Origin: Obrimoposthia wandeli
Taxonomy: Eukaryota
Direction: 5' to 3'
NCBI GenBank assembly: GCA_977020255.1
Contig: CDROCS010002597.1
Location: 496,001 to 560,000 of the forward strand
Length of the DNA: 64,000 nucleotides
In this document: one piece after another, positions 10,035 through 50,636 of the stretch
Layout: each line of letters starts with the position of its first letter
How positions within the stretch are numbered: the first letter of the stretch is position 1
The notes under the pieces: model-generated
Seen by the model: the letters and a program-made list of their open reading frames with translations, nothing else
The model's database searches: none
Told to the model about the DNA's origin: nothing
Program-made: the position numbers and the translations under genes

Positions 10035-10523
10035 ATGCAGGAATATATCATAGATTTTGAGGCTTTCATTAACAAAAATGGTGATTATATTATAAAATAA
10101 TTATGTATTATGGATGTATGCGACGTTTTTCATCCTTTGCATTTCATATTTCAAATTGATATCCCATTTAAAAGTTTAGATTATAAGAAAAAATTTACTA
10201 ATTTATATCTAAATTATTACTTTCATTTATTAAAATGGAAAGAAGGACATAAGGCTTTTTGTGAAATATGTATTTTCGATTCAAAAACATCTAATTTTGA
10301 TATAGAAAATGGAATTTTTTATGTTTTAGATGAAATGGATGGCAAAAAATATAAGACTTCAAAAAAATATTTTCCCAAATTGAGGTTGAATACTTTAAGT
10401 ATTTCACGTGATCATCTATTAAAAATTCCACGGAATATTTACTGTCCATATCGTAATCATGGTGACCATTGCGCATATAAAAAATGTTTAAGTCTTTCTT
10501 ATTATTACTTGACATGTAGATAA
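10035..10523 (+). pseudogene. Polinton-associated protein with DxE (DEDD-like) N-terminal motif and C-terminal Cys/His cluster
   Basis: MQEYIIDFEAFINKNGDYIIK*LCIMD...CPYRNHGDHCAYKKC; a single TAA sits where E of KEL is expected. Confidence 0.55.
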
Positions 10524-10723: not shown

Positions 10724-11777
10724 ATGCCTATGGTAAGAATTTATTTTTATTATTTCCTTATTAATATTTATTATTTCAGATTACTTGTAACCTATTCCCT
10801 GCGTATTGTGGTGCTTCGGCTCCACATGGAGGAGAGACCTGCATGGAGACAATGTCTGCATACTACCGGACAAAGTCTCAAGGTGTTCACTTCTTCGTCT
10901 GCCCCTTCTGCAGAACAATGGAGGAGAAGGAGTTTCGAGACTTCTTCAGTGAACATTGAGCTCATCTATCGTGTTTCACGGCCAACAACAAGAAGAGGGA
11001 TATCATGCAATTGGTGCGCGATTCGCAGGTCGCTCCACCTCCAATTCCAGTTGCAGTCGATCAACCCTTTTACGGTCCTGCGATTGGTCTCCCGGCTCCT
11101 GGTTCTGACCCATCCACTCAAATGTCTAACAATGAGTGGATGAATGACATATCCCAGTCAGATTTCGAGATAGAGCAGTGGAGCGATAACTCATGGTTGG
11201 AGACCATCGAGGAATCCGATTTCGTCGAGATGTCGGACGACAGCTCGATGGATTTCGTCAATGAAGAGGACTTCATTCCAGCTCAACTTGGATTGCCTTC
11301 ATTAGGTATTTTTTATTATTATTTTTAAATTATATATTTTATTTTTTAATATATATATTTTATTTTTATTTTTTATTCAGGAAATACCGTTCTACAATCG
11401 TCATCTGCTACAACAGATATGCCTCCACCATCGCGAGTGCCTACATCGATGTTAGCACGCCTTAGAGGTAATAATTTATAAAAATATATTTATTTTTTAA
11501 TATATTTATTTCAGCAGCACTAACCTCTACAACAGCCGCTTCTTCATCAGCAAGGTCAGCGGTCCCTTCAACATCAGCTACAGTGGCCTCAACATCGGCA
11601 GCATCACCAATAGCAGCATCTTCAACCTCAGCTGCCTTTGTGTCAACTGCTAATATAGATAGTTGTCTTCCCGTTCAATTAGGGGGAGGTTTGTCAGCGA
11701 CAAACGGAAGAAAGAAGCGAGGCCAATTTCTTAATAAGGTCCTACCAAAAAAAGTAGAGAAAATGGTGCTACTATAG
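10724..11777 (+). pseudogene. Spliced Zn-finger/acidic/Ser-Ala-rich segment, probably the N-terminal extension of pPolB
   Basis: GT-AG introns 10733-10779, 11306-11380, 11468-11514 all keep frame; one in-frame TGA at 10957; QLGGG motif near the end; -1 shift at the A7 run 11747-11753 enters the PolB frame. Confidence 0.7.
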
Positions 11778-14549
11778 AGTACCACCTAAATAATAAATAT
11801 GTTATAGTTAAGGTGCCATTAGGAAATGAAATTTTATTAAACGTAGGTGTAGATTCAAATATTGAAAATCTTTTAAAATCAGAAGTGACTAAATTAGGAC
11901 AGGCTAAGGTTCAATTTTGCGCAACAGTGCAGTTTAAAAATGTCAATGAGGAAACTAAAACTTGGGTAATTTCACATAAAGCAACTGTTTTCTATGATAA
12001 TTTTGTAACTGAAATTGGAAGAAACCTGGATGAAAAAATTGCTAATTATAGCGAGTTAAGTAGTGGATGGACTCTAGTTAGAATTCACGATGTTAGCTTT
12101 GTTCTAACAAAGTTCACTGACATGATATATCTTTCGGGGAGTTCATACATTCCTTCACCTAGATCTCTTCAACTTTCACGTTCCATTGTTAACGTACAAA
12201 ACAGTGATAATCTTTGCTTTCTGTATAGCGTGTTGGCCATCCTCAAAAGGGATATAATTACTGAACATAGAGAGCGTGTCAGTAAATATACCCCTTTTTT
12301 AAATGAATTGCAGTATCATGGAATAGATTTTCCAGTTAAATTAACTGCGATATCAAAATTTGAACATCTTAATAACTTGAGTATTAATGTATTCAAATAT
12401 AATACTGATATCCCAGTTAATGTAACAGATGAAGAAATATTTAAAAATCCTTTTGTAGATGTAATTTATAAGAGCAAAAATGAGGGGACTCATGTCAACT
12501 TAATTTTGCTCAAACAGAATAATAAATTCCATTATGCTGCAATTCCCAGTTTAGATCGTCTTCTAAATTTAGATAATGGAGCCTTACCGGTTAGGATAAG
12601 GTGTAAGTGGTGTCATAGATGTTTGCATGGATTCCGATCCGAATTATCTTACAGCAAACATCTGACATTATGTTCACTGAATCCTGATGACAATACGCTA
12701 TATAGCATGCCTAAGGATAAGGATTTAAAATTCAGGGATTGGGCAAAATGCATACCCGTGGAATTCAGGGTGTATGCAGATTTTGAGTCAATTTTAGCAT
12801 TGCACGACCAGTATGAGAGTATTCACCTACCGGCTTCGGCAGGACTACTATTCTTAGGCCCCAATATTACCCAGTATCATAAATTTTCCGGTCCAAATTG
12901 TATTTTAGATTTTATGCTAAAATTATAGAGGAATTAGGAACAACAATTGTCAAACCGTGGTATGATCTCAATGCTCATCAAGCAATGATCATGACAGGCA
13001 TAGACTGGGTTAATTTTAATTCTTGTAGATTATGTTATTTGTGTGGAACCCATTCTAAGTTAGTCAGAGATCACGATCATGTTACGGGGCGATACTTGGG
13101 AGTGGCGTGCAACCTTTGTAACCTTGGCCGTCGTCTCGCTAAAAAACCACGCATTCCCATCGTGTTTCATAACCTTAAAGGATATGATTTGCATCATATA
13201 CTTAAATACGCGTTGGGTACATTAAGCTCTTGGGAAATTTCATGTATACCTCAAACTTCAGAGAAATATTTATCTTTAACTGCATATACTGAATCATCAT
13301 GTTGTCAAAAATCAATCCACGGAGATTCTGTACATCGATATTAATAATTTGTATGGGTGGGCGCTTACTCAACCTCTACCTCATGCCAACTTTAAGTGGG
13401 TTTATGATGTGGATCAGTTGAATAAGTTGATGACAGATTTGGCTACTGTTGATACAGTTTCATCCGACATCGGCTATTTGGTTGAGGTGGACATAAAAAT
13501 CCCTCCAAATGTGCATGATAAATTAGATGATCTTCCAGTAGCGCCTGTTCATCAATGCCTACCTAATTCAAAGGTTAAGAAATTATTGTTAACCCATGAA
13601 GACAAGTTGAATTATGTTGTGCATTGGCGGCTTCTTCAATTCTACTTAAAGTTGGGAGCGAAAGTTACTCGAATTCATCGTGCTATAAGCTTCAGTCAAA
13701 ACTTTGTGTTTAAAGACTATATTGAGAAGAATTCAAGAAAACGTAATTTGGCCACTAGCAAATTCTATCGAGATTTTTACAAGTAATAGTCTCTTTGGAA
13801 AAACTGTAGAGGACTTGCGGAAACGTATTTGTCTATGGTTTTGCAATGATGAGCGTAAACTAATAACATATACTAGCAAGTACAACTTCAAGCGTAGTTT
13901 TACAATTGCAGATGACTTGGTAGCAGTGTTATTAGGAAAACAGAGTATTTGTCTCGATCGACCGAGTTATATAGGTCAAACGGTTTTAGACATTTCTAAA
14001 CTCAGAATGTATGAGCTTCAATACATAGAATTGGAGAAATACCGACAAGAATTTAATTGTGAGATTAAAATCACAGCTGGGGACACTGACTCTTTCTTTT
14101 TAGAATGTAGGAATGTTAGTTTAAATAATCAATTATTACCAGCAATGTTTAGGGACAACTTACTAGATACCCATAAATATCCCGCTAACCATCCTCTACA
14201 CTCTATGAGTTTAAAGGACATTATCGGGAAATTTAAGGATGAAAGCGAGGGACAGGTTTCGTATGATGATTGTATTTTCCTACGCCCTAAATACTACAGT
14301 TTACATGCATCTAATAATACATGTTCAATGAGAGCAAAGGGTGTGGGAAGAAACAATCTTACACATGAGGCTTACCGGAAAGTTTATGATACTGGGTGTA
14401 TTGAAAGCGTTGAGCAAACTAGAATTATTTCAAGAGCCCATCAACTGTATTCCCATAAATCAACCAAAATCGCTTTGAGTAGTAATGACGACAAGTGCTT
14501 TTGGGTAGAAAAGAACGCTAGCCTGGTTTATGGACACTTCAGAATTTAA
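11753..14549 (+). pseudogene. polB: Protein-primed DNA polymerase B (pPolB) with inserted endonuclease VII-like domain; frameshifted and internally deleted
   Basis: SGW...GSSYIP...NVQNSDNLCF; VYADFES (ExoI); RDHDHVTGRYLGVACNLCN; YIDINNLYG; NSLFGKT; AGDTDS; frameshifts ~12910 and ~13785; segment between ExoII and motif A missing near 13290 relative to E4. Confidence 0.95.
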
Positions 14550-14824
14550 ACGGTTTTCATTTTTTGATTTTTTTAGTTTAGTTTTTTAAAATCTTAGATC
14601 CCTATGGCACCTAGACTCTAACTTATTTGTTATTTCAATGCTTTTTTAGGATGGACCTTATTTATTATGCCTTATCTTTGCTGACATATCTCATTGTGAT
14701 GTTGTGATTAAAAAATGTATTAAAAAAAATTGTCTTATGTCTTTTATTATTTTACCCTTATATTTTTAGAGATTTAAAAAATAATTCAAAATAAAACACT
14801 TAAAATTTTTATTTTTATAACACA

Positions 14825-15205
14825 CTAATTTTTTTGCAACGATAACCATAAAATACATAAATGTCCACAGTTTCTCGTCGCAGGATCCTGATATTGTATC
14901 TTGTTGTAAAATACTCTTCTTCGGCCTTTTTGAATAGTTGAAACAAGTTTGTGTGGATAATACATTGCAAGTGGATCAAATACATGTATTGTCCACTCTC
15001 TAACATAAATAGCTATCCAATGTTCTCCTGGTAAATTCGAAGTATGAGTATTGATAATGTAACCTCCAGATTGAAAAAATGGAATCATATCGATAGGATA
15101 AACTCCATTGAATTCATCACCCAGGACATTCTCTGCTGATTCTTTTACTTGTTTTGAACTAAATAAAAATTAATAAATATAAATTTAAAATATGTCTTAC
15201 TCCAT
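14825..15205 (-). CDS. Adenain-type (C5) maturation protease, two exons, apparently intact (112 aa)
   Basis: Exon 15201-15205 (ATGGA), 42-nt GT-AG intron 15159-15200, exon 14825-15158; gives MDSKQV...GEHW...FDPL...QDPATRNCG with catalytic H, D, Q, C. Confidence 0.9.
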
Positions 15206-15206
15206 T

Positions 15207-16436
15207 CTATAATATGACAGTTCTGTTTTTATTGATTTGTATTTCCGAATCAAATACTCCGTAAATAAGCACCGTAGTAGGATGTGTTAAAGCTGCATTG
15301 AACTTAATTTCTAGTCGTAAATTTCCATCTTTTGGTAGTTGGCATTGGTTTATATCAAAGTCTTGTGCCAAAACAAATGTGAAGAACAGGCAGCTACTTT
15401 TAAACTCAGTGAAAGAAATACCATTGTTTATATTTTTATCTAGTTGACCCAAATTCCGAATAATAGATTGGGTATAAGCCAAAGCATAAGCGTTACCTTC
15501 GAAATCTGTTTTATATGTTTCACGATAATCAGTATTTCTTGAAAGTGTCACTGAACCAACATTAAGATTGTCAAATTGAGTTGCATCTGTCGTATAATTT
15601 CCTAGAAACTTTGCAATTTTTTGAAAAGAAATTAAAATGAATTTCGGTAATCTTACATCACCAAAAATGTAATCCTTATTAAAAGCTTGTGTACCCGTAC
15701 CTAAAGAATAGGATATAAGTTTAGTTTCTCTAATAGGATAACAAGCATTGTTTTTTTCCATTCCAATATTATGTGCCATTAAAACTGATTGCTCAGTTTT
15801 AACTCTTCGGACATACAATTTTGCATCCAAAATATCAAGTCTAGGTTTTAGAACGTCTGTGCTTATCAAAGAAAATTTTCATTTATTACGTTTCAAACGA
15901 AGATGTACATTAACACCGGGAATTAAATATTTCGGTTGTTCAAAGAAATTCAATCTCCAAGACCCACACATTTTGTAAGCTTTAGAACCCGAAATCCATT
16001 CTTTGCGAGTTGCGACCGTTTTATCATAACCAATGGTTGCCAAATTAGTATTTTGAGTATCAGTGCTATAATGCAATAGACTTCCAATCAAAACTTTATG
16101 AGCATAGGAAGAATTTCCACCTTCAATTTTGACATTATTAAGAGTAACAATCGCATCACTAAATAAAAAATTAAAAAGATACTTTACAGGTGTTACATCG
16201 GCATTTTCCTCTAAATTAGTACCATCTCGATTTAATACTTTTATTTGAAAATAAAGCAAAGTATCATTCAAATCTAAATACTGGCTATTGGAAACATTAA
16301 TATTAAATTCTAAATCAGTTAAAGTGATTCCTGAAACTGAGTTAACTAGAAATATTTCCTCAAAGGAAGCATTATCTACAACTACTTGTGGAAGTGGTTT
16401 ATCAAAAATACACAATTCAGTTTTGGTGCAACTCAT
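15207..16436 (-). pseudogene. Double-jelly-roll major capsid protein (Polinton PY/hexon-like)
   Basis: MSCTKTELCIFDKP...LIPGVNVHLRLKRNK*KFSL...LYVRRVK...LPKFILISF...GNLRLEIKF; the two listed ORFs are in frame across one TGA at 15879-15881. Confidence 0.9.
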
Positions 16437-16810
16437 TTTGAAAATATTGTTCCTTCAACTGTCTTACGTTTGTTTATATAAATTTTTTACTTCTTTTTAC
16501 GTTTAAATCCACAACCTTCTTGTCTTTCATTTGATATACCTTTTCTAATCGATTTAGCAACTTCAGGTAAAACATTATCAAGTTCATTAAATGCATGCTT
16601 CTTAAAAGTTGGAATTAGATTATTGTCCATAGATGAAGGGTAGTCCTTTCTTAATTTTGATATAAATCGCCCGAGTCTCTTTAAAAGAGGAAAGGTAAAT
16701 CTACCTAATGTTCTAAGCCAGCCAGATCCTTATTGTTTACCAACAAAATATGGTAATTCTCCACCTTGTTGGCTTTGACTATAAGCTTCAATTATTGCTG
16801 GATTCACCAT
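16437..16810 (-). pseudogene. PZ-like core/membrane-active protein with QxGG/QxGxG adenain-type sites
   Basis: MVNPAIIEAYSQSQQGGELPYFVGKQ*GSGWLRTLGRFTFPLLKRLG; homolog in E4. Confidence 0.7.
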
Positions 16811-17851
16811 TTTGTTTTCTTAAATGTATTGTTAAACTTGTCTTGGCCCCGTACGTGAAATCTATTAGTTTTCCGGAATCATCTCTAATATTTACTTCAA
16901 TATTGTTTATAGAAAAGAGAGAAACTGGAAGATACAATGGTTGATCTATACACATACCGACAGCGTCCCCATCTCTAGTTTCATTTTTAGATATCCATAT
17001 TGTTCTCAAAAGTGGAACTCGCTGTCCTCCTACAAGCGTTGGTTCTATTAAATTAGTATAAATATATAAATGATTAACAGCATTTAAAAGTTTTGCCTTA
17101 TTTTTAACTTTTATGGTTTTTATTGTATGGGTTTCAAAGGTATTTCTAATTAAACCAAGGTTTTTAGCGAGTTTATCATCAAATAAAACTCGTATTATAT
17201 TGCTCTTTACTGAAAACGTTATTTTACCATTTTTTAATGTTACACATTTATCGAAATATTCGCTACATTCCTTCTGTATTAATTTACAGAAATTCACTTC
17301 ACTATCTAATTTATAATCTTTTGAAAAAATTTTCAGTTCCACTACATACTTTGGTCTCGTTTCAACTAAAAACACTCTGTTACTCTATCAGGAACATTTT
17401 AAACCGATTTAGATGAGGCTATATCAGATCTCTTCATACCTACTACATGTCCACTGTCAAACCCGAATTGAAGAGCTTCTTTTTCAGATGCGAATATAAT
17501 TTGAATAGGTTTTGAAAACTGTTTTAGTCGATTTTTAAATCTGACTTTATTTTTTTCATATATTACTTTCACTTCTTTATCTATACAATTGTAATAGAAT
17601 TTTCCATTACTATCAAACCCAATCACAACTTCAATTGATTTTTCATGATCAACTTCTTTTGTAAACGAAATATGTGAGTTTTTTCTGATAGTAATTGGAG
17701 AATAATAAAAGGAAAATTCTGTTAATGCCGCTTCCCATTCTCCTTGGAGATTTATAGGATTTTCCCAATCGATAATAAAGCTACTAGCGTAATTATCTGG
17801 TTGAGTCTTCTGACATCCGTTACTAGGTAAAACCATATACATAGACTTCAT
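16788..17851 (-). pseudogene. Minor capsid protein (penton, Polinton PX)
   Basis: N-terminal YMVLPSN...F...L.GEWEAALTEF and C-terminal HLYIYTNLIEPTLVGGQRVPLLR...NNIEVNIRDDSG; frameshift ~17380. Confidence 0.85.
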
Positions 17852-18265
17852 ATTATATTAGATGCTGATATCCAAGTTGGATCTGAATAACCATGCCATT
17901 TAATGCCTTTTAATATTTCTTTAATGGCTTCAAGCATATCTATTGAAGACTTTGCTTTAACTGGAATTGCACGAGCAAACCAGCTAAATACATCAATACA
18001 TGTTAAAATATATCGATATCCCTTATTAATGGAAGAATATGGGATCATCTCCATCAAATCCATTTGCCATAAATTATTAGGACCGCTGGTTTAGTAAGCT
18101 CTAGTTGGAAACCTTCTTCTCATCGGCTTGTTCAGACTGTAGGCTAACTGGTTGCTCAGCCATTTCTGCGTTTTCTTGTATTTTTGTTTTGTTCTTTTTG
18201 CTAATTTTGAAACTCCAGTGTAGCCAATTGGATCTTTTGGGTTGAACCATATCTTCTCCATTACA
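17840..18265 (-). pseudogene. Retroviral-type (rve) integrase, copy 1, central core deleted
   Basis: WFNPKDPIGYTG...AYSLNKPMRRRFP...WQMDLMEM...YILTCIDVFS joined directly to the chromodomain end IKWHGYSDPTW. Confidence 0.85.
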
Positions 18266-18347
18266 ACAATTTGAATAGAAAGATAATTTAAATTTAGGTA
18301 AAGAAGGGTTAGCACCCATATCTTTAACTGATTTTAGAAATAATTGT

Positions 18348-18686
18348 TTATGAACGTGTCGCAGCTATAATACTACTGATAATTGAAGCAACAACTGGAA
18401 TAACAGCCCCTATGAAACCACCATTCTGTTTAAGAATAATATTTCGTTTCCTTTTTTTACCTTTTACATTAGCAATATCTAGAAGAGTTTTTCTATATTT
18501 CTTTAATATATTTTTCCGATTTCCAACTTTTACTCGACCCAAAACTATATTATACAAAACTTCCAATAAATCATCTACAACAAAAGATGAAAATGCTTTA
18601 AGAATAATCATTCTCTTATGAGGCTTTGATTATAAGGCTTTGACTAAAGCTTTAAAATAGGGTATGCTTCTTTGTATTTTCTTCAT
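18348..18686 (-). pseudogene. PW-like Polinton core protein
   Basis: Basic protein ending KRNIILKQNGGFIGAVIPVVASII; one upstream in-frame stop. Confidence 0.65.
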
Positions 18687-18875
18687 TTTAATAAAAAAAA
18701 GGTTCAATTTAAATATTGTTTATAATCGAAGCCATTTAAGGTTTCTTTTATTTCTAACTACAGATATGATTAATTTATTCACTTCTTTTTTTTCTTAATG
18801 ATTATTTTTTTTGATTTCTTAGACTTTACTTTACGTTTACGTTTCACTATCAACTTCTTAAAAGGCATTGCAAAT

Positions 18876-19495
18876 TTATTTTTTATAATTGTTCTCTATT
18901 TGTTTAAAATCAGTTACTCCCTTAGAATAAAATATGTCTGTTAAAACACGTAAATCATCTGGGCAAGCTTGTATAAAGTCAATAAATATATACCCATGTG
19001 CTTGTTTAGCAGCATCATGGAATGAATCAACTAGAAAGTTATTATTTTGGGGGAATGCTTGTCTGGCTACAAAATCTACAACTGTAAGATTTCTTGTTCT
19101 ATGGTGACCTCCTTGGTGAAAAAAAATTTGAGTGATAAATATAACTGTTACTTCACGATGTCTTGCAATCTTTGTAAATAAATTATTAAAGTCCGATTCC
19201 TTGTTAGCTTCCTGATACAAATCATCAATTATAACATCTTATTTTTTCAATCTTTTACACCAATTTGCATCAAATCTTTCAATAAATTTTATTCCCTTCA
19301 ACTTGCAAACTTCTGTTTTGGTTAATCCGCTTACCACTCCTCAACCATGATGCCAATAAATATTTTTGAAACTAGAATTGTAAAGAGAATCATTTTGCAA
19401 AAATTTACATACGAAATGTGTCTTTCCACTTCCACTGGGACCAACTAATTGAAATACAGCATTATTATTTAGCTCCATTACATATATTCTTTCAT
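18876..19495 (-). pseudogene. A32/FtsK-like packaging ATPase, copy 1
   Basis: Walker A GPSGSGKT (~19410-19445), IIDDLY, RHREVTVIFITQ, HGYIFIDF; frameshifted. Confidence 0.9.
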
Positions 19496-19795
19496 TTTAA
19501 TATTGTTTATATTATCATAGAAGTTTCCTTATTGAAATGTACAATGTTAGAGCTATTGTAGATGAAATACAAAAATTAATTAATGAATATTTGGCTATAA
19601 TTTTATTTATTTGTGTTCGATTTCTAAATTCTCGAATAACGTGTGATCTAACCAATATTATCTCTTGTTATGTCATTATATTTTAATTCTTATAAAATTT
19701 GTTTACCCTTAATTTTTTTTTCATCGATATTTCATCGACAAGACGATCCACTTCATTGTTTGTATTTATAGTATTATTCATTGGAAACAATAGGT

Positions 19796-20310
19796 TTAAA
19801 CGGGTTTGTTTATAGAAAAAGATAACAATATGTAATAAGATATATTTTCAAAAATCAAATCAACAATGTCTGGATAATCAAAGTTTTCCAATCCCAATAT
19901 CATAACTTTACCACTGGAAAATATATTTACACAAAGCGGTTTAAACTTCAAATAACTGATAGCAAAAAAAAATTCTGGTTCAAACATGCATTCTTCTTTC
20001 ATTTTCTCTGCAATTTTATATAGATTTATTTGTTTCCCGAGATTAGTCGAAATTGTGATTGATTGTATTGCAGTGATTCGAATTCCAAATGTAAATTGAT
20101 CTCAAGCAAAGGTATTTTGCATCTCATAACACGACAACTTCCTAAAAGAATTCAATATGAAAATAAAATAAAAAACTAACCTGTGAGAAAAATAACAACT
20201 GTGAAATTGTCAAACCTTTTCACATATTGTCTCGGCTTCCATTCATTGAATGGTAAGTACGAAACATCATTTTCTATTCTACCTTTATAATTAATATTTA
20301 CGAGTTTCAT
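19796..20310 (-). pseudogene. TATA-binding-protein-like gene, copy 1 (two exons)
   Basis: 39-nt intron 20142-20180 gives VVIFLTG|SCRVM; second repeat IQSITISTNLGKQINL...FEPEFFFAISY...PLCVNIFSSGKVMILG; one frameshift ~20090. Confidence 0.75.
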
Positions 20311-20560
20311 TTTACTAAAATTGTATTCTGTAAATTCTTCTTTATATATTTCTGAACCTGCTTTTGTACTGCACATTTCTTGTAATTATCTCGCAAACCT
20401 ATTATAATTTGATGATATATTTCTTCCAATCAATTTTGAATTTTAATATGGATTTAGCCTAATCAAATTCAATGCTTTAGTTATATTAACCAATGAGATT
20501 CATGTCTTTGTTAGAAATTAGTATAAAAGAATGCGTTATTGGAGGACAAATCACAATAAA

Positions 20561-21040
20561 TGCATTCATATCAAAGACAATTATCAATGATGGACGATAG
20601 CCAACGGATATTAAGCGGTGACGAAGATTTAGAAATGTTTGAATAATCGGATAGGGATATGTATGAATAAGTGAAACAATATTTCAAATACAAAGTCAGA
20701 TGCTTGAAGAAGACTCAACTGATTGCTTTAATAAATCCTGTGAAAATTGAAAGAAAAAAGTTCAACTATTATCTATCAAATATTCAAAAACCAGATTTTC
20801 AATATCTTAAACAGAAAGTTGAAAATACAGTTCTAAATATCACTTTCAATAAGAACGAATTTTTTATCCGAGGAGCCGATGCAGCATTTCTAGATGACTA
20901 TTGAAGAGAAATAGATGTTGATGCGTTTCCGAAAAAGAAGCAATGGACTGTAACAATTCGACTTTATGGTTACAAAAAAGATGAAATGGGAACAAAGTTG
21001 CCTATGTGGAAAATTGAACGTGCTCATATTCCTATGTTTT
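20561..21040 (+). pseudogene. Unknown Polinton accessory protein; homolog at ~26280-26700
   Basis: FFIRGADAAF...TIRLYGYKK...LPMWKI; several in-frame stops. Confidence 0.55.
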
Positions 21041-21171: not shown

Positions 21172-22070
21172 TTATAAACATTGTTTTATATTCAGTTTCC
21201 TTATTTTAAAATGGATCTTCTTCTGAGATATGTATGAAATTTTTATTATCCACTTAACTCGATATTGTTTATACTTTCCTCGCTTTTTTGTCTCTAAGAT
21301 TTCCAGAATTCTATATACATTCGGTTTCTCAGATAACATTTGTAATTCCTCATGATAAAATTTACCTGTGATTTCATTATTGGTTTCATCTTCAATGCAA
21401 TACATTACTGAACCATGTTTAGTATCAATTTTAGCTATACAAAATACTTCATCACTCCAATTCTCTTTTAAATTCTTTGTAAAAGAAGTTGCACTAATTT
21501 GAGAAATACGCACATAATCCCCAATTTTATACTTGGGTTTCTTTACAACTTTACTTTGATTAGGACGTTGCAACTAAGGCGATTTTTTATTGAGAAAACA
21601 CTGAATAATGATTAATGTCATGTTTTTTCAATAAAGTACTGACATGTTTATTATAAAACTTCTTTCCACTATCTGTTTGGAAATTAAATGGTTTAATTTC
21701 TTTGATCATTTGCTTCATTTCCTCTAAAACATCAGTACCGGATTTAGATTTTAGAGGAATAACTCACGCATATCTACTAAAGACATCAACACAAGTTAAA
21801 ATATATCTATATCCATCGTTAATACTTGCATACGTTGCAATGGTCATCCATCAAATCTGCTTACCATAAATCATTCGGGTCGCTTGTTTTGTATGATCTT
21901 GTTAGGAAGCGACGTCTCATAGGTTTGTTTAAGCTGTAAGCTAATTGATTTCTCAACCACGTCTGAGTTTCCTTTTCCTCTTTCTTTGCCTCTATTTTGT
22001 CAATTTTTAAAGAAACTCCTGTATAACCAAAGGGATGACTTGGATCGAACCATATTTTCTCAATTACAAT
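21172..22070 (-). pseudogene. rve integrase with C-terminal chromodomain, copy 2
   Basis: YILTCVDVFSRY, FQTDSGKEF, YKIGDYVRIS...NWSDEVF...GKFYHEELQ...YRVKW; frameshifts and stops. Confidence 0.85.
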
Positions 22071-22149
22071 AAGACGATTTTATTCTTTTATTTAATTTAG
22101 GAATAGTTGGAAGTGATTTCATAAAAAAGTCATATTTTTGATTCACATT

Positions 22150-22330
22150 AATGTTTATAATCATCGTTTGATTAGTCTGCTAGCAAGTGTACTAACTATC
22201 GAACTAACAATTGGTACTAGAAATCCTAAAAATCCTCCACTTTGCTTGTTTAGTGACTTACGTTTACCGACTCGTGTCTTAAAAAGCAAGTAGAGGCTTC
22301 TTATGTTGATTCATTTTAATCTTAATATAT
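22150..22330 (-). pseudogene. PW-like core protein fragment, copy 2
   Basis: LNKQSGGFLGFLVPIVSSIVS. Confidence 0.55.
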
Positions 22331-22619
22331 ACTTTACCAGAAACTATTTTCTGTACCATATTAAGTAAATCATTTATTACAAAAGTAGGGAATGATTTAA
22401 GAATATTTGGACGATGAATAGTAGGTGCACGCATAAGAGAAGTGAAATATGCGATACTTTTAGACTTTTTATTACGACCAACTGTTTTTCTTTCTTATTT
22501 GATTTTTGAGCAACCTTTTTCCTTGCACTTAAAACCAATTTAATCAATTTCTAGACTTCAGGTGTAATTTTTTTTTATACCTTTTTAAAAGTCATCTTCG
22601 AGAAACCGTTTTTTTGATT

Positions 22620-23230
22620 GATCATAGTTGGTAATACCAGATGGATTGAATATATTGAATTTAACTCTTAGGTCATCAGAACAATCTTGGATAAAATCAA
22701 TAAACATTTAGCCTTGAGGAACAGTAGTTGCATCTTGAAATGCATAAATTAGGTAATTTCTATTATTCGGGAAAGCTTGCCTTGCAACAAAATCAATAGC
22801 AATCAGCTCACATGGATTCTTGAAGAGAACAAGGTAAGGTACATTTAAATTATGAGTTCTGTGATTCCCACCCTGCTGAAATAGATTTTGTGTGATGAAA
22901 ATAACAGTTATTTCACGATGTCTTACTATTTTAGTGAATAAATTATTGAAATCACTATCTTTATTTGCTTTTTGATACAAGTCAGCAATAACAATAACAT
23001 CATGTCGCTGTAATCGCTTGGATCAATTATTGTCAAATCTATTAATGACTTATATATTTTTGATTTTCTTAAACTCTTTACTAGTCAAACCTGCTTCTCC
23101 ACCTTCTCCCTGATGCCAATCTATCTTATTAAACTTAAATCTAAAGTATTTATTATTTTGTAGCAACTTGCAAATAAAAAGAGTTTTCCAGCTACCACTA
23201 GGCACTAGAATTTGAAAATCCTGAATTATC
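22620..23230 (-). pseudogene. A32-like packaging ATPase, copy 2
   Basis: LYQKANKDSDFNNLFTKIVRHREITVIFITQNLF...YLVLFKNP; closely similar to copy 1. Confidence 0.85.
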
Positions 23231-24307
23231 TTTTAATTCCATATTAAAAATATTAGTGTTGGAATAATGTTTATAAGACAAAGTTATTTTAAATATTTTA
23301 TTACTATATATCCAAAAACAAACAATAAAAGGCTCTTCTGGAACATGCTCTCTTCTTTCTTCTTATTGTAGCCCATAATGAGGCGATCGACAGCCTTGTT
23401 GTAGATCATTCTTCTTAAATGCTCTTCTAGAGGCAGATCCGTTGCTTCGATGAGTCTCAAGACATCTTCTTCTATAAGATATTTTTATATAACTAATTCA
23501 ACTGTTTAGATACTATACAACTAAAATCTGATTGGATGCTGAAAGACTCATAAAGAATACAATTTATATATTATAATGATTAAAAATACGTATTTGAATA
23601 AACATAGTTTCATTAGGTGCAGCAATACTACTTTTAGCATTAACAAGGTTGGAAGCAGTGCTAACAGCCATTGAAAGAGATAAAAATGCAATAACAATAC
23701 AAACAGCATGTAAACTTACATAATGACCACATACTAAAACTTTCCAGCCATTTTTGATAGTTTCTTTAATTATATTTTTAGTCTATTTATAACATTGGAA
23801 TATTGTTTCTCCTAATTTCGTATTTACAAAGATAGACGTATACTTTAATTTCTTATAAGATATCTTATCTACCATATATGTAATAATGACGTGGGTGAAT
23901 TTTGATTTCAGAAGCTCAGTTTCATCAATCCCATATCAATAATTTCCAATTTATAATTGATTTACTAAAATCTCATTCATTGGAGTTCTGTTTAATCTTT
24001 CCGCACTAAGTTGACTATATATATAGCTCTAAACAAACTATCAAAAAGGTGAGTCATATGATTATTTTATATTCTGAAAGCAGGAGCTATTATTGATTCC
24101 ATAAAAGCCAAAGCATTTAAGAAATCTGATCGTTTGTTTTTTTCTTCAATAAGTGTTTTCACTTCTTCAATAGTTTCTTCTCTTCTCATTATTGCTTCAT
24201 GTTTCATTTTTCATCGCTGCTGGTTCATTAAGTTTATCCATTGATTGATAAATTTAAAGCTATAAGATTATTGTTTATTAATCAGAAAAGAAAAAGAAAT
24301 CTATTTT

Positions 24308-24817
24308 TAGTAACATTGCAACTTTTTGCAAGGGATGTCTTTGTTTAGGAAATAAATAACACAAATGTGAATATGTATATTAAATAAAATACATACAATA
24401 AGATATTCAAAATCTAGTGACTTAACACCAAGTATCATAACCTTCCCGCTCACAGAAATGTTCACGCATAGAGGATTGTATTTGGCATATCAAAGTCCCG
24501 GGAAAATGTCTGGCTCCTAAACTGCATCCAATCCCATACTCTTGCTCATCTTGCTTAGGTTTATCGATTTTTCCAAATTAGTACTGACGCTGATTGATTG
24601 GATTCTTTCGATTTTAATATTGAAAGGAAGAGTGCTTTCATCTAGCATCGCTTTACAGCCCATTATTCTGCATATTCCTAAATTATATTAAAACCTAAAT
24701 GAAATAAATTACTATATTTGAAAATTATAATAATCTTCACACTTAAGTCGGTCGAAGTCCGAAATCGTAAATATCCCATTAATTAATATTCACCAATTTG
24801 ATATTGTGAAGTAACAT
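24308..24817 (-). pseudogene. TATA-binding-protein-like gene, copy 2
   Basis: KLVNIN; 35-nt intron 24678-24712; ICRIMG...IQSISVSTNL...*EPDIFPGL*YAKYNPLCVNISVSGKVMILG. Confidence 0.75.
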
Positions 24818-25544
24818 TTCTCATTGTTATTATAAAAGGATTTTTATATATAATTTGAAAATATATTTTGACTGCATGTCAACTCTTTGTTAAATTGTTT
24901 ATTCCGTGAAATATAATATTTCTTACTCGTCTAATGATAATTGTCTTGCAATATGGGCTAGGAAATTAACCGGTCTGAACATTTTATACATGTATTTAAG
25001 TGTCCGCATGGTAAAAATACTACTGAAATCATATCCGGCAAGCAAACAATACATTCAGGATCTGGTAAAAGGTATTCAAGATAATTTACAACATGACTTA
25101 GTTCAGGTTTTATTTATAAAGAACTTAAATCCGTTAGAAACTCAGTTATAGAATCATATTATTTTACCAAATGTTTTCAAACTAAAACGGCTTTGATTCT
25201 GTCATGAGTATAATCACGTTTCAACAAAACTATTTGATAAGTTTTCATTTGAGCATCAATATCATTATTACTAATATGATATTCAACAATACATCCCTTC
25301 TTGATACCCATACAGAAGCTTTACACTCTTGTGTATAAAAAATTCTCTCTGGTATAGTATGAATAAACTCAAGTCGGAGTACTGCTTTCTGATAGAAACA
25401 ACATCAATATGAATAATTCCAAATATCGACATGTGAGAAAATCAATAATGTATGTATTTAAAAATCAATAAAATCATTATTTCGTACAATAACTACTTCA
25501 TCCATAGGACTTGTATCAAATACATTTGCTTGTTACCTGTTTCA

Positions 25545-27720: not shown

Positions 27721-28566
27721 TATACAACAATCATAAAATTCGATAAAATTCGACAATAATCGACCAAAATTGACTGAAAGAAAAAATTTCTGGCGCTGGT
27801 TCTAAGGGGGGTCAAACGTCTTTGTTCAAAAAGACACTCACCCCCTACTAATAATGTAAAACATGTTGTGACTTTGAGTATAAATTAGATATTCATTAGA
27901 TATTTTAGCTATATTAAATATATTATTGTTAAGTTATTGTTAAATTAATAAAAGCAAAAAATAAAAACTTATAAATATTAAAATTTAACTACATATTATA
28001 ATATTATTTGTTCAATTTGAAATCCCAAACATTTAAAATAAATAATATTTTTATTAGTAAAGTTTATTTTCTCTAATTAAACGTAATAGTTATTTATAAC
28101 CATTCATTTAAATGGAAAAGAAAGAAAACCAATTTCAGAATTCACATGGACCATGCCACAATCCGGGAGTCTACGTATCGAAGTTCGAAATCAATATATT
28201 ACGATAATGATGTATAGCAACGATTTATGTATTATTCGAGAGATCATTAAATTATAATTTTATTTAAAGATCATGTTTCCTGCTTTTTAGAAACTTTAAA
28301 ACATAATAGATAATGCTTCCTTTTGAATTAAATATTTTTTATCTATAAAACCGATATCAAGGGATTCATCACTATATAAATCACGTTTTGAGCTGAACTT
28401 TAAGTATTAAATTAGACATTTTATACTCATTAATACTTGCAGTTAATGGTAATGGTTTCACAAACAGCCCAATCTCTGCAAATGTCGTGCCATAGTTCAA
28501 CTGTGTACAGATTAGAGGTCATATATAAGACAGCTAAGCTGTCAATCTAAAAGTGTCTATCGACAA

Positions 28567-30721
28567 ATGTGGCTTATAATATGTACTTGTACAATCATAT
28601 CTGTGTGTATATATGTCTTATCGAAATCAGGCACTAGAAAGTCCCTACCAAGAAACGTAGAACCACTGCCGATAGAGAGAGGATGGCCAATTGTTGGAGT
28701 TATACCATCTATAAACACGTCTTTGTACGATTATTTCTGGCGATTGTCAAAAAAGCTCGGTCCAATCTTCGAAGTGAAATTCGGTTTGAAGTCATTGGTT
28801 GTGCTGAATAATTACGATTGGTTCAAGAAGTGCCTGAAAGACGATGCCGACAACTTCAGTGGACGGTATATGAATAATCTGGTGCATTCGATTTCACACA
28901 ACAGCGGAATTTTGTTTCAAGAAGGAGCAAAGTGGCAAAAGTCACGATCGTTTACGATGAGAGTGTTAAAGGATTTCGGACTGGGAAGATCTAAGTCCGA
29001 GGAGATCGTTCAAGCCGAATTGGACTTATTATTGGAGAGGCTTGTATCTGCGAATGGCAATTCAGTGGACTTTGGCAAGTTGATCTCGATGTGCACTCTG
29101 AACATAATATCCAAGTTTCTGATGAACAAACGGTTCGAGGAAGACAACGAAAAGATTAATTTCCTTAAATACGTCATTGAAGAAACGTTAGTTCTTCGAG
29201 ATCCTTGCCAGATGATGCTAATAATGTTCCCGGCTCTGAATCGGTCGCGGTTGTTCTGTGCACTTACCAAGTACATGTTCAAGCACACAAAGAGCTTTGT
29301 GAAGGTGCACCAGATCTTCCTTGATGAGATCGAGGAGCACAGACGTCACATTGACGTCATATCCGAGGGAGAGGACTTGATCGATCGATTCCTACTGGAG
29401 CAGAAACTGCAGCAGTCAAGTGACCATGACGGTGCATTCTCGGAATGGCAGCTGGTCAGAGTGCTGTTTGAGCTATTCGTGGCGGGCTACGAGACGACCT
29501 CGACGACATTGGTGTGGTCGATGCTGCTGCTGGCGCGTCATCCCGGCGTACAGGAGGAGATGTGCGAGGAGATCGATCGTCGACTTGGTGGTGAGACGCG
29601 CGTGAAGTTGGCCCATAAGCGAGATCTGCCATTCTGTGCCGCTGTGATGGATGAGATCGCCAGAATGGCGGCTGTAGCCCCGGTGGCCCTGTTCCATCGA
29701 ACTCTGAATTCCAACTCGACGGTCGGTGGCCGCTACTACATTCCTGCAGACACCATGGTCGTACCTAACATATTCGCCTGTCTCCGCGACCCCCTGGTCT
29801 GGGAGCGCCCGCACGACTTCTTCCCCGGCCATGTTCTCAAGAAGCCGCATACGTACGTCCTCTCTTATGTCCTTTTAATACCAACCATATTGAGTAAAAT
29901 CGAGAGCCATTCATTATTTGTGTTTTAGTTTTACATTCTGGCTGATTTACGTTACAGTATCAATTTGATTCCATTTTTAATTTTTGTCTAATATTTTTTT
30001 CTTTTTAATTTTTACATTCTTTTGGACTAGTGCATTGAAGTGTCATACATTTTATGTCTAATGACGTTCATTTTCCCTTGATGAGAGTGTGTTTATTTGT
30101 AATTGCGTCATAGGTCTGAAACAAATCCAAACGAGACACCCAGAAAAATGAAAGTGTGGGTAAGTTTCAACTTCAAAATGATAAAATATTACGTTGTTCC
30201 TTATTTAACAAGGACAAGATATTTCACATATTTCAATAATAAATCGCTTACATTTTTCTATAATCTATTACCAGTAGACTTTGGCTTCTATTTACACTTA
30301 AGCATCAACTTGTCTTGAAGATATTCATAACGAATTACTTGAAACATTTTCATTCATTTTAATAGTTTTAGTTCTATGAATTACCTTTTTTTAATTCCGG
30401 TTGAATCCCGGCTAAAAACATGACATTATCTTCCGTAATATTATATTTTTGAGATAAGTCTGTTCATCACACAGGCTCGCGTCGGAAGCCGAGTACTATC
30501 CCCGAGAGGAGCTTGTCGTATTTGGTATGGGTCGACGTCAATGCCTCGGTGAATCGCTAGCAAGACTGGAGTTCTTTGTATTCCTGGTTGGCATTCTGCA
30601 GCGGTTCCGTGTCGAGTTTGCTCGGGACATTTCGGACTCTGAATACGACAAGGTCATACGAGGTCCTGACGCTGTGATTCGATCCTGCGGAATAACAGAT
30701 TTTAAATTCACCATTCGCTGA
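28567..30721 (+). CDS. Cytochrome P450, clan 2-like, intact host gene (510 aa, two exons)
   Basis: Exon 28567-29852, GT-AG intron 29853-30474, exon 30475-30721; N-terminal anchor, PIVG, AGYETT, EIAR and FGMGRRQCLGE heme motif. Confidence 0.95.
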
Positions 30722-31189
30722 CATCTACTGATATAAAGGCTGAACTTGTAACTATGTGTGGGTGAAGGTTCTTTGGTTGGCTTTTTTTACAATAAAGTAT
30801 TGTAATTCACTTAACTCATTAGGTCATATTGTTATATTTGTAGGACAGCAACTTTATTTGCATAGTGATATTTACCTGATTAAAATAATAATTTTTTTTA
30901 ACAAACATTTATTAAATCAAAGCCAACATAATTTATTTAAAATGTTTTATGATAAAAAACTAATTGTTTTAAATACTAGATTTTTTTGGAAAGTTACTTT
31001 TTCAAATTGAAAATATAAAATTTTGAATTAAAGGTGCTTTTCCATTATATTATTTTTCTTTTTTAGAGTTTTATATGTTTTATGTTTGGTGTTTAATAAT
31101 TATTTCATTAATAAAACATAAAAATACACCATTTGAAATACACCAGTTATGTAATAATACACACTAGGCTATGTGAAAACAATTTTTTT

Positions 31190-34035
31190 AAAAAATTAAA
31201 AAGTCTGGATAAAAATAAAAATTCTTGTAATTTCAAAAATAATAATACTTTTTAATTTAAATTTGTGCCAAATAAATTTGCTAGTTTTTGTTAAAGTTAA
31301 ACAAATTTTAATTTAACGAGATTTTTAAACTAAAATATTAAAGTATCATTATTTAAAATAAATATTAAACAAAAAAAATTTAATATACTTAAAATACTTT
31401 ACTAATATTTCTTTTTAAATAAATATTTTAATTTACGCAAAATGTTTATTAATTTTATAAATGTAAATTAACAATTTTGTTTAATAAAATTAAGGGATCA
31501 TCTGAAAAAAAAATTGTAATTTCAAAAAAAAAAAATTATATATATTTTATTTAAATTTGTGCCAAATTATTTTACTAGTTTTTGTTAAAGTTAAACAAAT
31601 TTTAATTTAACGGGGTTTTGTAATAAAATATTAAAGTACCATTATTTAAAATAAATATTAAATAAAAAATGTTTGATAAACTCAAAATACTTAACTAACA
31701 TTTATTTTAATAAATATTTAAATTTACGGAATAATTTTATTAATTTTTATTAATCCATTTTTTTTAATAAATTGAAAGGTCATTATAAAAATAAAAATAC
31801 TTGTAATTTCAACCCTATGTCAATTTTTTATTATTATATGCAGTCGGCGTGACAAAATTTATTAAGTTACTAAGTTACTAAGTTTATAATTCAAATATTT
31901 TTTATAGTTTAAAGATAAAATCACCTGATGAAAAACCACAATAATGTGGCCAAGAAAAGTATTAACATATTAAATGAGTATTCATATTTATTAATAAGAA
32001 ATTGTCAAAATTATCAAATAATTTTTTTAAAATTATTTTGTGAGGATTATTATTATTTTCATTAACGTCATCAGTTACACTTTCAGTCATACTCTCTAAC
32101 TTAGTTCATTTACATATACATTCAATATTACAAACTTTTTTAAAACTTACTCTTGTTATCACTTAGCATCATTTTCATCTATACTCACTAACTCATGTAT
32201 TTACATTGTGATTTACATTTATATTCATTCATACCTTTCTACCAACTTGCTTGTCTATAGTTTTACTTACTTTTAGTATTATTTTCATTCATACCATCTA
32301 ACATAGTGTTGTTTTCTATTAATTTCGCTGTAACTTAGTCTTTTTAACTTTTAAAATAACTCAGTATTACTGCTTCTTACAGTTGCTTACTTGTTATTAA
32401 TCTAACTGTAACTTAACATAACTTTTATTCATACGAAAACTCAATTTTAATTTAGTCTAAATTACACTCGCATTTAATCATACTCTCGACTCTTTTATTT
32501 TTCAATTACTTACACAGTCACTCATTCACACTTGAAGTTTTACATTCACTGGATAAGACTCTTATTTGTATTTGCATTCACTTGCATTCATACTTGCATT
32601 CATTTACATTCATTCTAACTCTCATTTATTCAAACTAGTACTCAAATTCATTAATATTTTACTCATTTTCATTCACACTTGACATTCGTACTTACAATCG
32701 TATTCATTCTTACTTTTATTTATATTTATACTGTATTAATTCATACAATCGATAATTAATTTTATTTGTTCTCACAAGAGATTTTTAATATTTTAGAAAG
32801 TCAAATAATAAATAGAAATACTAAGTTGATAATCGAATATGTACATAATTTGATTTATTTACATATAAAACAATATAATTAAAGATTTGGTATTCTAATT
32901 TATAAACAGAACTTTCAGTAACTTTGAATAACATTTGTTTGCAAATTAATTTTCAATATTTGATACAAATAGAATACATGTATAAAATTAATTTTTGCAG
33001 TTTTAAAAATAATATGTTCTAAAGATATTTTCAAATATATGAAGTGGAAATTGGATAATATTAATACTCAAATTATAAAAATATTTCTTTAGCCAATTCA
33101 AATTTATCAGATTAAAAAAAATCTATTAAGAAATGTTATCAAATGATATAAAGAATTTTTAATGATTTATGTGTATATGTGAATGAATTTTTGATCTTTG
33201 TATCATATTAAAATAACAATATGTGAAAATAAAAATAAAAAGTAAAAATTCACATCTTAATTATTATAATTTTATTAGATTGTTACATCATCTTCATTGA
33301 TTGATAGTATTCATTTAATAATTAGTTAAATAGTAGAATATTTTAGATTTTTTTAAAAAATTGTTTTAAAATTTAAAATAATAATATTTTCGTCATTGAT
33401 TTAAGTTATAAATTACTAGTATAAAAGTGTGTCATTTAAAAATTAATAAATATTTAACATGTGTAACTAAGAGTTTAATAAATATGTTTGTGTTAAAATA
33501 TAAATTAGTTGAAATACACCAATGGTGACAATTAAAACTTGGCGTAAATTTAAATATTTATCATAAATAGTAAATATTTTGAGTTTATTAAATTTTTTTG
33601 ATTAATATTTATTTTAAATAATGATATTTTAATATTTTATTTTAAAAATCCTTTAAATTTAAATTTGTTTAATTTTAACAAAAACTAACAAATTAAATTA
33701 GCACAAATTTAAATATTAAAGAAATTATTATTTTGAAACATTAAAAGTATTTTTATTTTTATAATAATCTTTCATTTATAAAAATTAATAATAATTTTCC
33801 GTAAATTTAAATATTTATTTTAAAAAATGTTAGTAAAGTATTTTAAATTTTATTAAACATTTTTTGTTTAATAATAATTTTAAATAATGGAACTTTAATA
33901 TTTTATTTTTTAAAAAAAACGTTAAATTGAAATTTGTTTAACTTTAACAAAAACTAGCAATTTAATTTGGCACAAATTTAAATTAAATATATATATATAA
34001 ATATATTTTTTTAAATAATTTTTTTTTTGAAAATA
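31190..34035. repeat. Foldback-like structure: AT-rich ~300-bp subrepeats, two direct (31190-31815) and two inverted (33540-34035)
   Basis: TTTAAATTTGTGCCAAA...CTAGTTTTTGTTAAAGTTAAACAAAT occurs twice on + and twice, diverged, as reverse complement. Confidence 0.7.
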
Positions 34036-39489: not shown

Positions 39490-41077
39490 ATAATAAATGC
39501 AAAAAAGTTGAAGGAACAATATTTGCAAGATGAGTTGCATCAAAACTGAATAGTGTATTTTTGATAATACCTGTTAATTACTTCTTTAATTATTTATTTA
39601 ATTATGCTATTGGTACTCTTAATAATGTGAAAATTGAAGGTGAAAATTCTTCCTATGCTCATAAAGCTTTGATTGAAAGTCTATTGAATTATAGTACTGA
39701 TACTCAAAATACTAATTTGGCAATAATTAGTTTTGATAAAACGGTTGCAACTCGCAAAGAATGAATTGCAGTCTAAAGCGTACGAAATATGTGAGTCTAT
39801 GAGACTAAAAGTCTTTGAACAACCTAAATATTTAATTCCCGATGTAAATGTACATTTTCATTTGAAACGCAATAAATGGCTGATACGACGGGATCATCTT
39901 CCATGGGTGTTTGATGCCTGCCTCGATATTTTCGAAGATATTGGTTCTCATCGGTCTCATGAAATGGTGAGAGAATTGTTCATCAGCTCTTGACTTACTC
40001 CTTGGCTCACCACAGTCGAGTCTTGACTAAGAAAGTCAATGTACTGCGACAGTGGTGGTGTTTGCTGTTGTACTGGATAGAGATCTCCATACATATTCAC
40101 CTTCATATCTTCGTCTATGTCAACGTTGTTGTAAAATAGCATTTTTAATTTATGAAAAATAATGAAAAGAGATCTCCTTATATACAGACTAATTCTCTTC
40201 CATCATCCAATGAGAGCGTGTTATTCAAATAATTTATTTGAAAATCCATATTTTTTGCCTGTCTATGTTCAATTAATTTATTCAAAAAATTGAGTGCGTG
40301 TTGAGATAAATAAACATTTATACAATTCTTAAAGTCATATATAGGGTTTTAGTGGCAGACAAATTGGGGGATTTCAGAAGCTAAATGGTAAGCCAAGCAT
40401 CGTAGGGACCTGCTAAAATCACTGTTATTGGAATTCAAATTCCATATGCGCTTAATCTTTGAATTTCAGTTCGCCACCTTTACCACTGTACCATTAACCA
40501 TAAGTAAACTGCTCTTGTACAGTTGAAAAGTATATGTATGTCTCAGGACATGTATAGATTTTTATATACATGTGTAGTTTGAGTAGTACAGGGAGGTAAT
40601 TGTGAGTGTAGAGGAATATAATTTTAAAAAATACTATCGCACCAGAAGGGCACAATTTTTTATGGGGAAGTTGAGAAAAATGTATAGTATGTATAGTATA
40701 CATGTGTAGTTTAAGTAGTGAGAGAAGGTATGGGTAGACGGATATATTTAATGAAGTTACGTTCGCACCTGAAGGGTGTGATTTTTTTGTTATTGTTACT
40801 TTCGCTTCTGGAGGGTGCGATTTTAGTAGTTTCGTTCGCCCGGAGATGCGCTATGGGTGAGCCAAACCCACCTCCCTTGTGGGGGTTGGGAGCGATCAGG
40901 GTGCCCCACAATTATTTTAGGTGGGGAACCTCCCACCACCCCCACTGACGCGGGGTAATTAGACAGGACACACGTGCGCGAAATTTTACTCATCACACAT
41001 GTACGGTTTTAAATGACAGTGGTATCCCCGTGGGGAAGGGGGGAGGGAATGGATTAGACTGGACATATCCACCTACT
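39490..41077 (-). mobile_element. Internally deleted sibling of E1 in inverted orientation (E3)
   Basis: Terminus CCACCTACT at 41077; first-ORF N-terminus homolog at 39975-40142; MCP N-terminal fragment on + at 39509-39880. Confidence 0.85.
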
Positions 41078-49514: not shown

Positions 49515-49602
49515 CTGAGATTTCTTCAAACGCACCACCTTCTACAACTATATGATGTAAAGCCCTATCAAAAATAAATAATTCTGATTTTCCACAAGCC
49601 AT
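49515..49602 (-). pseudogene. MCP N-terminal fragment
   Basis: MACGKSELFIFDRALHHIVVEGGAFEEI versus E1 MSCTKTELCIFDKPLPQVVVDNASFEEI. Confidence 0.75.
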
Positions 49603-49604
49603 AT

Positions 49605-50520: not shown

Positions 50521-50636
50521 AAAAGGAAATAATTGGGTATTGTATATATTTTTCGCTCACATGTAATGAATTTGTTATAGATTAAAAATAGAGTGTAATC
50601 ATTATCTTATATGTATATATTCAGATAGATAAACTA

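Follow-up and report, generated by a model that had tools for sequence, protein, structure and literature searches.

A conserved family of short TBP-like proteins in Polintons and its candidate cognate promoter box

Results

A TBP-like gene within a decayed Polinton

The stretch of Obrimoposthia wandeli DNA analysed here, 64,000 nucleotides in length and referred to below as the window, contains a TBP-like gene within a decayed Polinton.

20310-19796, minus strand: whole TBP-like gene, ATG at 20310 and stop at 19796
20181..20310, minus strand: exon 1, 130 nt; remodelled first lobe with an N-x-N strand, a P-x-Q stirrup and the F116 equivalent
20142..20180, minus strand: predicted intron, 39 nt, GT..AG, phase 1, with in-frame stops
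19796..20141, minus strand: exon 2, 346 nt; end of lobe 1 and the whole of lobe 2

The coordinates, intron, frameshift and quoted peptides given in a preliminary description of this gene were all recovered from the sequence, including an exon 1 translation that ends in IFLTG; the second peptide, FEPEFFFAISY, is present but is a decayed form of a stirrup that reads EPEIFPALSY in most sister copies. A one-base break interrupts the frame of exon 2 near 20090-20105, and this exon is 346 nt long in the window copy versus 347 nt in 21 of 45 copies; the window copy is a pseudogene, its frameshift reflecting the decay of this one copy. The last 101 codons, an open frame at 19799-20101, match the TBP profile PF00352 (41.8 bits against a cut-off of 22.9; E = 9.6e-11). 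Exon 1 by itself had no Pfam TBP match; over 43 aa it shares 58% identity with the beginning of an intronless relative, P0002.

The surrounding genes are as follows.

18876..19478, minus strand: packaging ATPase (broken), direct neighbour of the TBP gene; ATG at 19478
14825..18629, minus strand: PZ-like gene, integrase with an internal deletion, putative minor and major capsid genes and protease; the box-carrying cluster
11738..14549, plus strand: protein-primed PolB (frameshifted), PolB motifs read directly; no Pfam match
20671..21040, plus strand: T7 gp2.5-type SSB-like gene (broken), divergent neighbour, by alignment
24334..24800, minus strand: second TBP-like gene, more decayed, of another Polinton family; intron at the same site

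Membership of the Polintons is indicated by pPolB (from its motifs), RVE integrase, packaging ATPase, adenain protease and capsid genes, all of which are present. Pfam matches in the 14825..18629 cluster were to rve (E = 3.4e-6) and Peptidase_C5 (E = 0.033), and an intact relative of the ATPase (L049) matches Pox_A32 above the cut-off; the putative capsid genes had no Pfam match and are presumed to be such from gene order. A relative of the SSB-like gene (L036) gave a model with a pLDDT of 95.9, whose best match was 1je5 (Z 7.9, rmsd 3.0, 107 aligned). SSB-like relatives adjoin the TBP gene in many elements, with two candidates in L078.

The window Polinton is interrupted at ~21252 by another element, and no clear terminus was found in this interrupted copy. 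Region 21250-24950 holds an older, second Polinton family nested against this one, with its own ATPase, integrase and TBP-like remnant. Elsewhere in the window are PolB and capsid remnants of a third Polinton family (49519-54229), a Polinton fragment with an inverted capsid piece and end-like sequence (39492-40250), an AT-rich foldback of long nested inverted repeats (31150-34020) and, between mobile elements, a host gene that is cytochrome P450-like by inspection (28516-30721, plus strand).

Several smaller reading frames accompany the Polinton genes. A minus-strand ORF running down from 19781, between the TBP and ATPase genes, encodes in sister copies a product of ~90 aa whose C-terminus is hydrophobic, and is truncated in the window. 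Another minus-strand ORF, at 18091-18319 just upstream of the integrase, starts with MGANP, contains cysteines and is preceded by a CATAAAC box; we would guess at a myristoylated virion protein. On the plus strand, ORF 10101-10523 is conserved beside the protease or the TBP gene in many elements and has a Cys/His cluster; considered as a TFIIB-like partner, it had no Pfam or Atlas match, and its relatives carry, by inspection, what we take to be a DEDD-exonuclease-like motif. No TFIIB Pfam match was found among 53 of the 117 neighbour ORFs (at least one per cluster), a search made on incomplete contigs and one that a remote homologue could escape. The TBP-bearing elements L036, L049, L066, L067 and L078 also carry cargo, comprising a dual-specificity phosphatase, an E2 ubiquitin-conjugating enzyme, an LRR protein, a RING finger, KilA-N, a phospholipase A2-like domain and C2H2 zinc fingers.

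A survey of other Polintons, suggested in the preliminary description, found the same gene beside the packaging ATPase. In other genomic regions the structural cluster follows the TBP gene in 10/10 cases and the ATPase is adjacent in 9/10, and loci picked by ATPase alone have a TBP gene within 1.5 kb in 9/10, showing that the TBP gene is a near-fixed part of these Polintons. Its neighbours vary; in some other elements it follows an exonuclease-like ORF instead.

Sister copies and a predicted 39-nt intron

The Maverick/Polinton carrying the window TBP gene is very abundant in the host genome, where at least 150 scored matches of 87-91% identity came from 30,354 first-look candidates, neither figure being a copy number. 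Of 49 loci tried in a survey of the intron, we kept the 45 that span the gene and dropped four partial ones. The borders are GT in 43/45 and AG in 43/45 copies, the length ranges from 34 to 40 nt and is not a multiple of three in 19/45, reading through the intron meets a stop in 41/41 copies, and exon 1 is 130 nt in 40/45. Intronless relatives such as P0002 are continuous across the site, and an intronless family is also present within the same genome (L034, L115). Three other lineages also carry an intron at this position, namely the remnant at ~24334-24800, L116 and the metagenome contig L067. Splicing of the predicted 39-nt intron is well supported by the statistics of the 45 copies together with the intronless relatives and the same-site introns. 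Four RNA runs from one sample are neutral either way, with no intron joint among the joints listed and 110 joints outside that listing.

An undisrupted TBP gene is present in 11 of the 45 copies. Within the window subfamily pN/pS is 1.01 (325 pairs, of dead copies); it is 0.37 in a second copy set, which was chosen by protein score and is hence biased low, and the net value between the two sets is 0.50.

A widespread family apart from host TBPs

Metagenomes yielded 63 matching loci, to which one viral contig was added; other Polinton genes are shown on 24 of these 64, and the rest are mostly short contigs, with several of L083-L099 being ordinary TBPs. A profile search recovered 56 representatives (50% clustering) at E < 1e-30; at 1e-10 there were 431, ordinary TBPs among them, and a longer-form member used as query brought in 81 more proteins. 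Family members are mostly 145-180 aa long.

In a quick tree of 76 rows, among which are no named sequences from NCLDVs or herpesviruses, a branch with SH-aLRT 95 sets apart the 21 canonical and host rows, and another with support 99 the 39 short forms; five rows labelled as having Polinton context (L036, L046, L058, L071 and L079) come from contigs on which no core gene is shown. When the window family, represented by exon 2 of L008, was forced to group with host TBP1/2, the AU test rejected the arrangement (p-AU 0.00875), and the intron site of the Polinton gene differs from the exon ends of the host TBP gene. Clustering with host TBP, which had been raised earlier as the outcome that would count against a separate viral gene, was thus seen in neither the tree nor the AU test, and the Polinton-linked family appears both wide and apart from host TBPs. 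Signals of its origin conflict, the top phmmer and Atlas matches being archaeal and the top Foldseek matches eukaryotic.

In the host, two TBP genes of canonical type lie next to each other with opposite orientations (among L021, L022, L023/L026, L024 and L025), and there are also divergent TBP paralogues, some of them intronless with substitutions at F99. The host TFIIB gene is split over exons.

A TBP fold with a remodelled DNA face

The TBP fold proposed for the gene was found both by the Pfam profile and by structure search. Intronless relatives have two PF00352 stretches, and a model of relative P0001, which lies outside the window's family, forms a two-lobe beta-saddle (pLDDT 89.5) that matches TBP from end to end (Foldseek E 6e-9; Z 12.3, rmsd 2.8, 150 aligned) and viral TBPs in BFVD with E values to 1e-7. 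In its first lobe H1 is short and H2 is absent, there being no helix between the strands at 45-51 and 66-78.

We aligned 153 family rows (proteins of 135-230 aa and locus ORFs, with a few fused or duplicated ones removed) with 21 canonical rows, using yeast numbering set by an offset fitted to the residues in Table 1 of PMC12529657. The G125-Q158 span has 19 residues in the Polinton family versus 32-33 in 20 of the 21 canonical rows, with on average 1.8 K/R versus 5.7, and the lobe-1 linker is short in 91 rows and longer in 60. Retained residues include F116 (146/153), F190 (152), P191 (128) and F207 (152), and the EPE(L/I)FP stirrup is kept along with the TFIIB-docking glutamates E186 (137/153) and E188 (151/153), both positions being E/D in 143/151 rows. 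A Phe occurs in the first stirrup in only 4/151 rows, so that F99 is lost and three of the four intercalating Phe remain; of the central Asn pair, N69 is kept in 129/153 and N159 replaced by S/T in 152/153. Further changes are V71N (109/153), V122R (147), T124M (151), V161T/S (151) and L205N (152). The DNA face of the family is, by this alignment, rewired and polar, and loss of F99, N159 and, as aligned, R196 could weaken binding to double-stranded DNA.

A YATAAAC(R) box before structural genes

When 74 upstream regions were screened for k-mers without bias, the top words were ATAAAC (34 versus 6.5 expected) and TATAAAC (24 versus 3.5). Within 14800-20000 of the window TATAAAC occurs 7 times in sense and 0 in antisense (1.1 in shuffles), and YATAAAC stands 33, 33, 33 and 42 nt before four ATGs of the Polinton; the signal is local, with no enrichment over the whole window (28 versus 23) and TATAAAC on neither strand of PolB (11738..14549).

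20340..20348, minus strand: TATA box of canonical type, TATATAAAG, 38 nt upstream of the TBP ATG; shared by copies L003, L008 and L136
19808..19814, minus strand: TATAAAC box within the 3' end of the TBP gene, 33 nt upstream of the small ORF at 19781
19505..19511, minus strand: TATAAAC box, 33 nt upstream of the ATG (19478) of the packaging ATPase
18718..18724, minus strand: TATAAAC box before the PZ/core-like ORF
18346..18352, minus strand: CATAAAC box, 33 nt before the MGANP small ORF (18319)
16905..16911, minus strand: TATAAAC box, ~100 nt before a small basic ORF
16472..16478, minus strand: TATAAAC box, 42 nt upstream of the ATG (16436) of the putative major capsid gene

Across 11 elements (52,069 bases) TATAAAC occurs 58 times in sense versus once in antisense (shuffles 9.9, maximum 17) and CATAAAC 25 times versus 0 (shuffles 7.5), and canonical TATAWAWR is unenriched (48 sense, 44 antisense, shuffles 42.6). 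The box lies upstream of 34/44 structural or packaging genes versus 1/28 TBP genes (Fisher p 1.7e-10, a value that, like the others for the box, overstates the case because the elements share ancestry and served both to discover the motif and to count it); by gene, it precedes the ATPase in 10/10 and the integrase in only 2/6. Its spacing is also constrained, with 31/83 sites falling 25-45 nt before an ATG versus 3.0 at random, and the box before the small ORF that starts at 19781 in the window lies at exactly 33 nt in 8/8 copies. No initiator-like signal was evident downstream.

Other readings of the motif fared poorly. A poly(A) signal is not indicated, AATAAA being unenriched and 51/83 sites lying within ORFs, many of them at least 40 nt before the stop; nor is a constraint on protein sequence, two reading frames being used equally (25 and 26 sites). 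The forkhead-type site GTAAACA occurs 12 times versus 7.3 (maximum 14), no clear enrichment, which disfavours a forkhead reading.

The TBP genes themselves have a canonical TATA within 90 nt in 11/28 cases versus 8/44 for structural genes (p 0.06). We infer that TATATAAAG at 20340..20348 is an early promoter read by the host, a step that is weak because canonical TATA precedes only 11 of the 28 TBP genes. Several TBP genes among L059, L062, L067-L070, L072 and L074 carry TTGTTTTA(C), not TATA, ~45-55 nt upstream; an initiator-like word, TCAT/TCAC, lies closer to the ATG.

A TBP-less Polinton was sought for comparison. A capsid query found none in viral contigs, an ATPase query gave three distant contigs (23-29% identity) unsuitable as a control, and an ATPase search of the same genome returned TBP-bearing families; the link between gene and box is thus one of co-occurrence.

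Discussion

The family has the two-lobe saddle of cellular TBP and TRF/TBPL proteins (PF00352; 1cdw, 1ytb, 1mp9) and shares N69, F116, F190, P191, F207, E186 and E188 with them, but its protein has only ~145-160 aa, is ~20% identical to eukaryotic TBP in a structure alignment, lacks H2 and has a short H1 in lobe 1, has F99 and N159 replaced and V71, V122, V161 and L205 polar, and forms a separate branch. Taken together, the Polinton mini-TBP family is real and conserved, and the box is its candidate cognate promoter.

NCLDVs mostly encode their own RNA polymerase. Their TBPs, with which we group poxvirus VITF-3 (PMC12917281), likewise have a TBP fold and have lost the N-lobe regulatory signature, but according to the available text of PMC7221094 they mostly lose the glutamates and bring a cognate TFIIB, none of which was detected among the Polinton neighbour ORFs; the first glutamate is ~40% conserved in viral TBPs as given there, versus 137/153 (and 151/153 for the second) in the Polinton family. 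The beta/gamma-herpesvirus vTBPs (KSHV ORF24, EBV BcRF1, HCMV UL87) are TBP mimics acting on host Pol II at a non-canonical late box, and KSHV ORF24 has polar residues at V122, T124, V161 and L205 as well (PMC12529657, Table 1). In the parts of that paper available, however, ORF24, at 752 aa, retains all four Phe and has an N-terminal domain of its own that binds Pol II; it depends on viral partners and is described as incompatible with TFIIB binding, whereas the Polinton protein keeps the TFIIB glutamates and is a bare core, without a Pol II-binding N-terminal or an extra C-terminal DNA-binding domain.

The vertebrate Mavericks share the core gene set and two-module layout but are described in the available text of PMC8097293 with eight intronless ORFs, to which the Obrimoposthia wandeli Polinton adds a TBP-fold gene with a spliceosomal-type intron, and some polintoviruses carry the late transcription factor VLTF3 (PMC11131425, available text). 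MELD viruses with an adintovirus-like PolB (Starrett et al., PMC8502044; bioRxiv 10.1101/697771) bear a 'TBP' label, which in the parts available is a figure-legend abbreviation in a section on non-animal datasets, with no family, residue or promoter analysis, and one supplement has 0 matches to TBP. The available portions of PMC8097293, PMC10748475, PMC11131425 and 10.64898/2026.06.19.733378 do not mention TBP or TATA. That figure-legend label is what we found in print for related viruses, and no description of a Polinton TBP family or box was found in the literature searched, a scope outside which Repbase and most subscription papers fall.

We consider it probable, though well short of certain, that the Polinton TBP is made early and reads YATAAACR to direct late genes through host TFIIB and Pol II while evading the regulators of TBP. 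The host TBP would read the ordinary TATA of the Polinton TBP gene early, and the host spliceosome would remove the intron from its transcript. Lobe 1 of TBP, to which the second Phe pair (step 7/8) belongs, faces positions 7/8. The viral TBP would contact the minor groove of YATAAACR, and its remodelled lobe 1 would accommodate the C at position 7, which falls outside the YWTAWADN consensus given in the available text of PMC1935006, where the second Phe pair of TBP inserts at step 7/8. The intact stirrup of the second lobe would then dock host TFIIB and so bring in Pol II, and loss of the basic H2 surface would let the protein escape control by TFIIA, TAF1 and Mot1/BTAF1; as far as PMC7221094 was available, it describes the two lobe-2 glutamates as the TFIIB/Brf docking site and the N-lobe basic patch as the contact for TFIIA, TAF1, Brf and BTAF1. 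The outcome would be a one-gene early-to-late switch.

The preliminary description had proposed a stand-alone factor redirecting host Pol II to AT-rich viral promoters, or else a TBP decoy. Redirection fits the box before structural genes, although the target would be a specific box and not mere AT-richness, and the factor is probably not stand-alone because it would need host TFIIB. Between promoter factor and decoy, the conserved DNA face, the missing regulator surface and the box favour the former, a function deduced from sequence. A protein that silences host transcription by sequestering host TFIIB/Brf or by sitting on host TATA boxes would keep the docking glutamates (143/151 rows with both E/D) and could lose several canonical DNA contacts, as this family has; yet the replaced residues of the DNA face are near-invariant (R122 in 147, M124 in 151 and N205 in 152 of 153 rows) among lineages ~50% apart, which counts against a decoy because a pure protein decoy needs no such conservation. 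With the H2 surface gripped by most host regulators gone as well and the box left unexplained, we give a decoy or dominant-negative role little credence.

A host reader of the box deserves more weight, if still an unlikely explanation in our view: host TBP/TFIID or another host factor would recognize it, and the viral TBP would serve general coactivation or repression of early promoters. TATAAAC is one base off canonical TATA, and host TBP may read it because there is a crystal structure of wild-type plant TBP bound to a C(-25) TATA variant (PDB 1qn3, from the entry information available); the host moreover has several divergent TBP paralogues (L021-L029), and the tie between gene and box is one of co-occurrence. 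Against this, it is the C7 form that is enriched and nearly absent from the antisense strand while canonical TATAWAWR is unenriched, GTAAACA is not clearly enriched (12 versus 7.3, maximum 14), and the TBP genes themselves avoid the box. It is also improbable, to much the same degree as a decoy, that the protein is a non-transcriptional binder or bender of DNA, possibly single-stranded, acting in replication or packaging with the neighbouring SSB. The gene does often adjoin the T7 gp2.5-type SSB-like and packaging ATPase genes, and Giardia TBP, without three Phe, prefers ssDNA (PMC12209930), but the Polinton family retains three of the four Phe and the EPE(L/I)FP stirrup, the box tracks gene starts, and the neighbours vary between elements. 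Least credible, and already largely refuted, is a fragment of host TBP captured recently, or a passenger pseudogene, that does nothing for the element: the neutral decay of the window subfamily (pN/pS 1.01 over 325 pairs) would suit it, but the 56 representatives (50% clustering) at E < 1e-30, the family-specific invariant residues, the AU test against grouping with host TBP1/2 and an intron site unlike host exon ends do not.

The fuller proposal is that a single minimal TBP of 150 aa, respecified for YATAAACR, coupled to host TFIIB and invisible to regulators, runs the early-to-late cascade in a broad group of Polintons; this we hold tentatively, as something falling slightly short of an even call. 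The window copy is dead and ordinary, and the interest lies in the family. If the proposal is true, no viral late-transcription system known would be smaller, the TBP and its promoter would form an orthogonal pair on host Pol II, and there would be sequence evidence for Mavericks driving virion genes without a helper virus. By showing that TBP can drop helix H2 and one Phe and switch its target, it would inform the evolution of TBP, and it would offer a compact orthogonal promoter factor. For Mavericks/Polintons themselves, it bears on the timing of capsid-gene expression and on an autonomous viral cycle.
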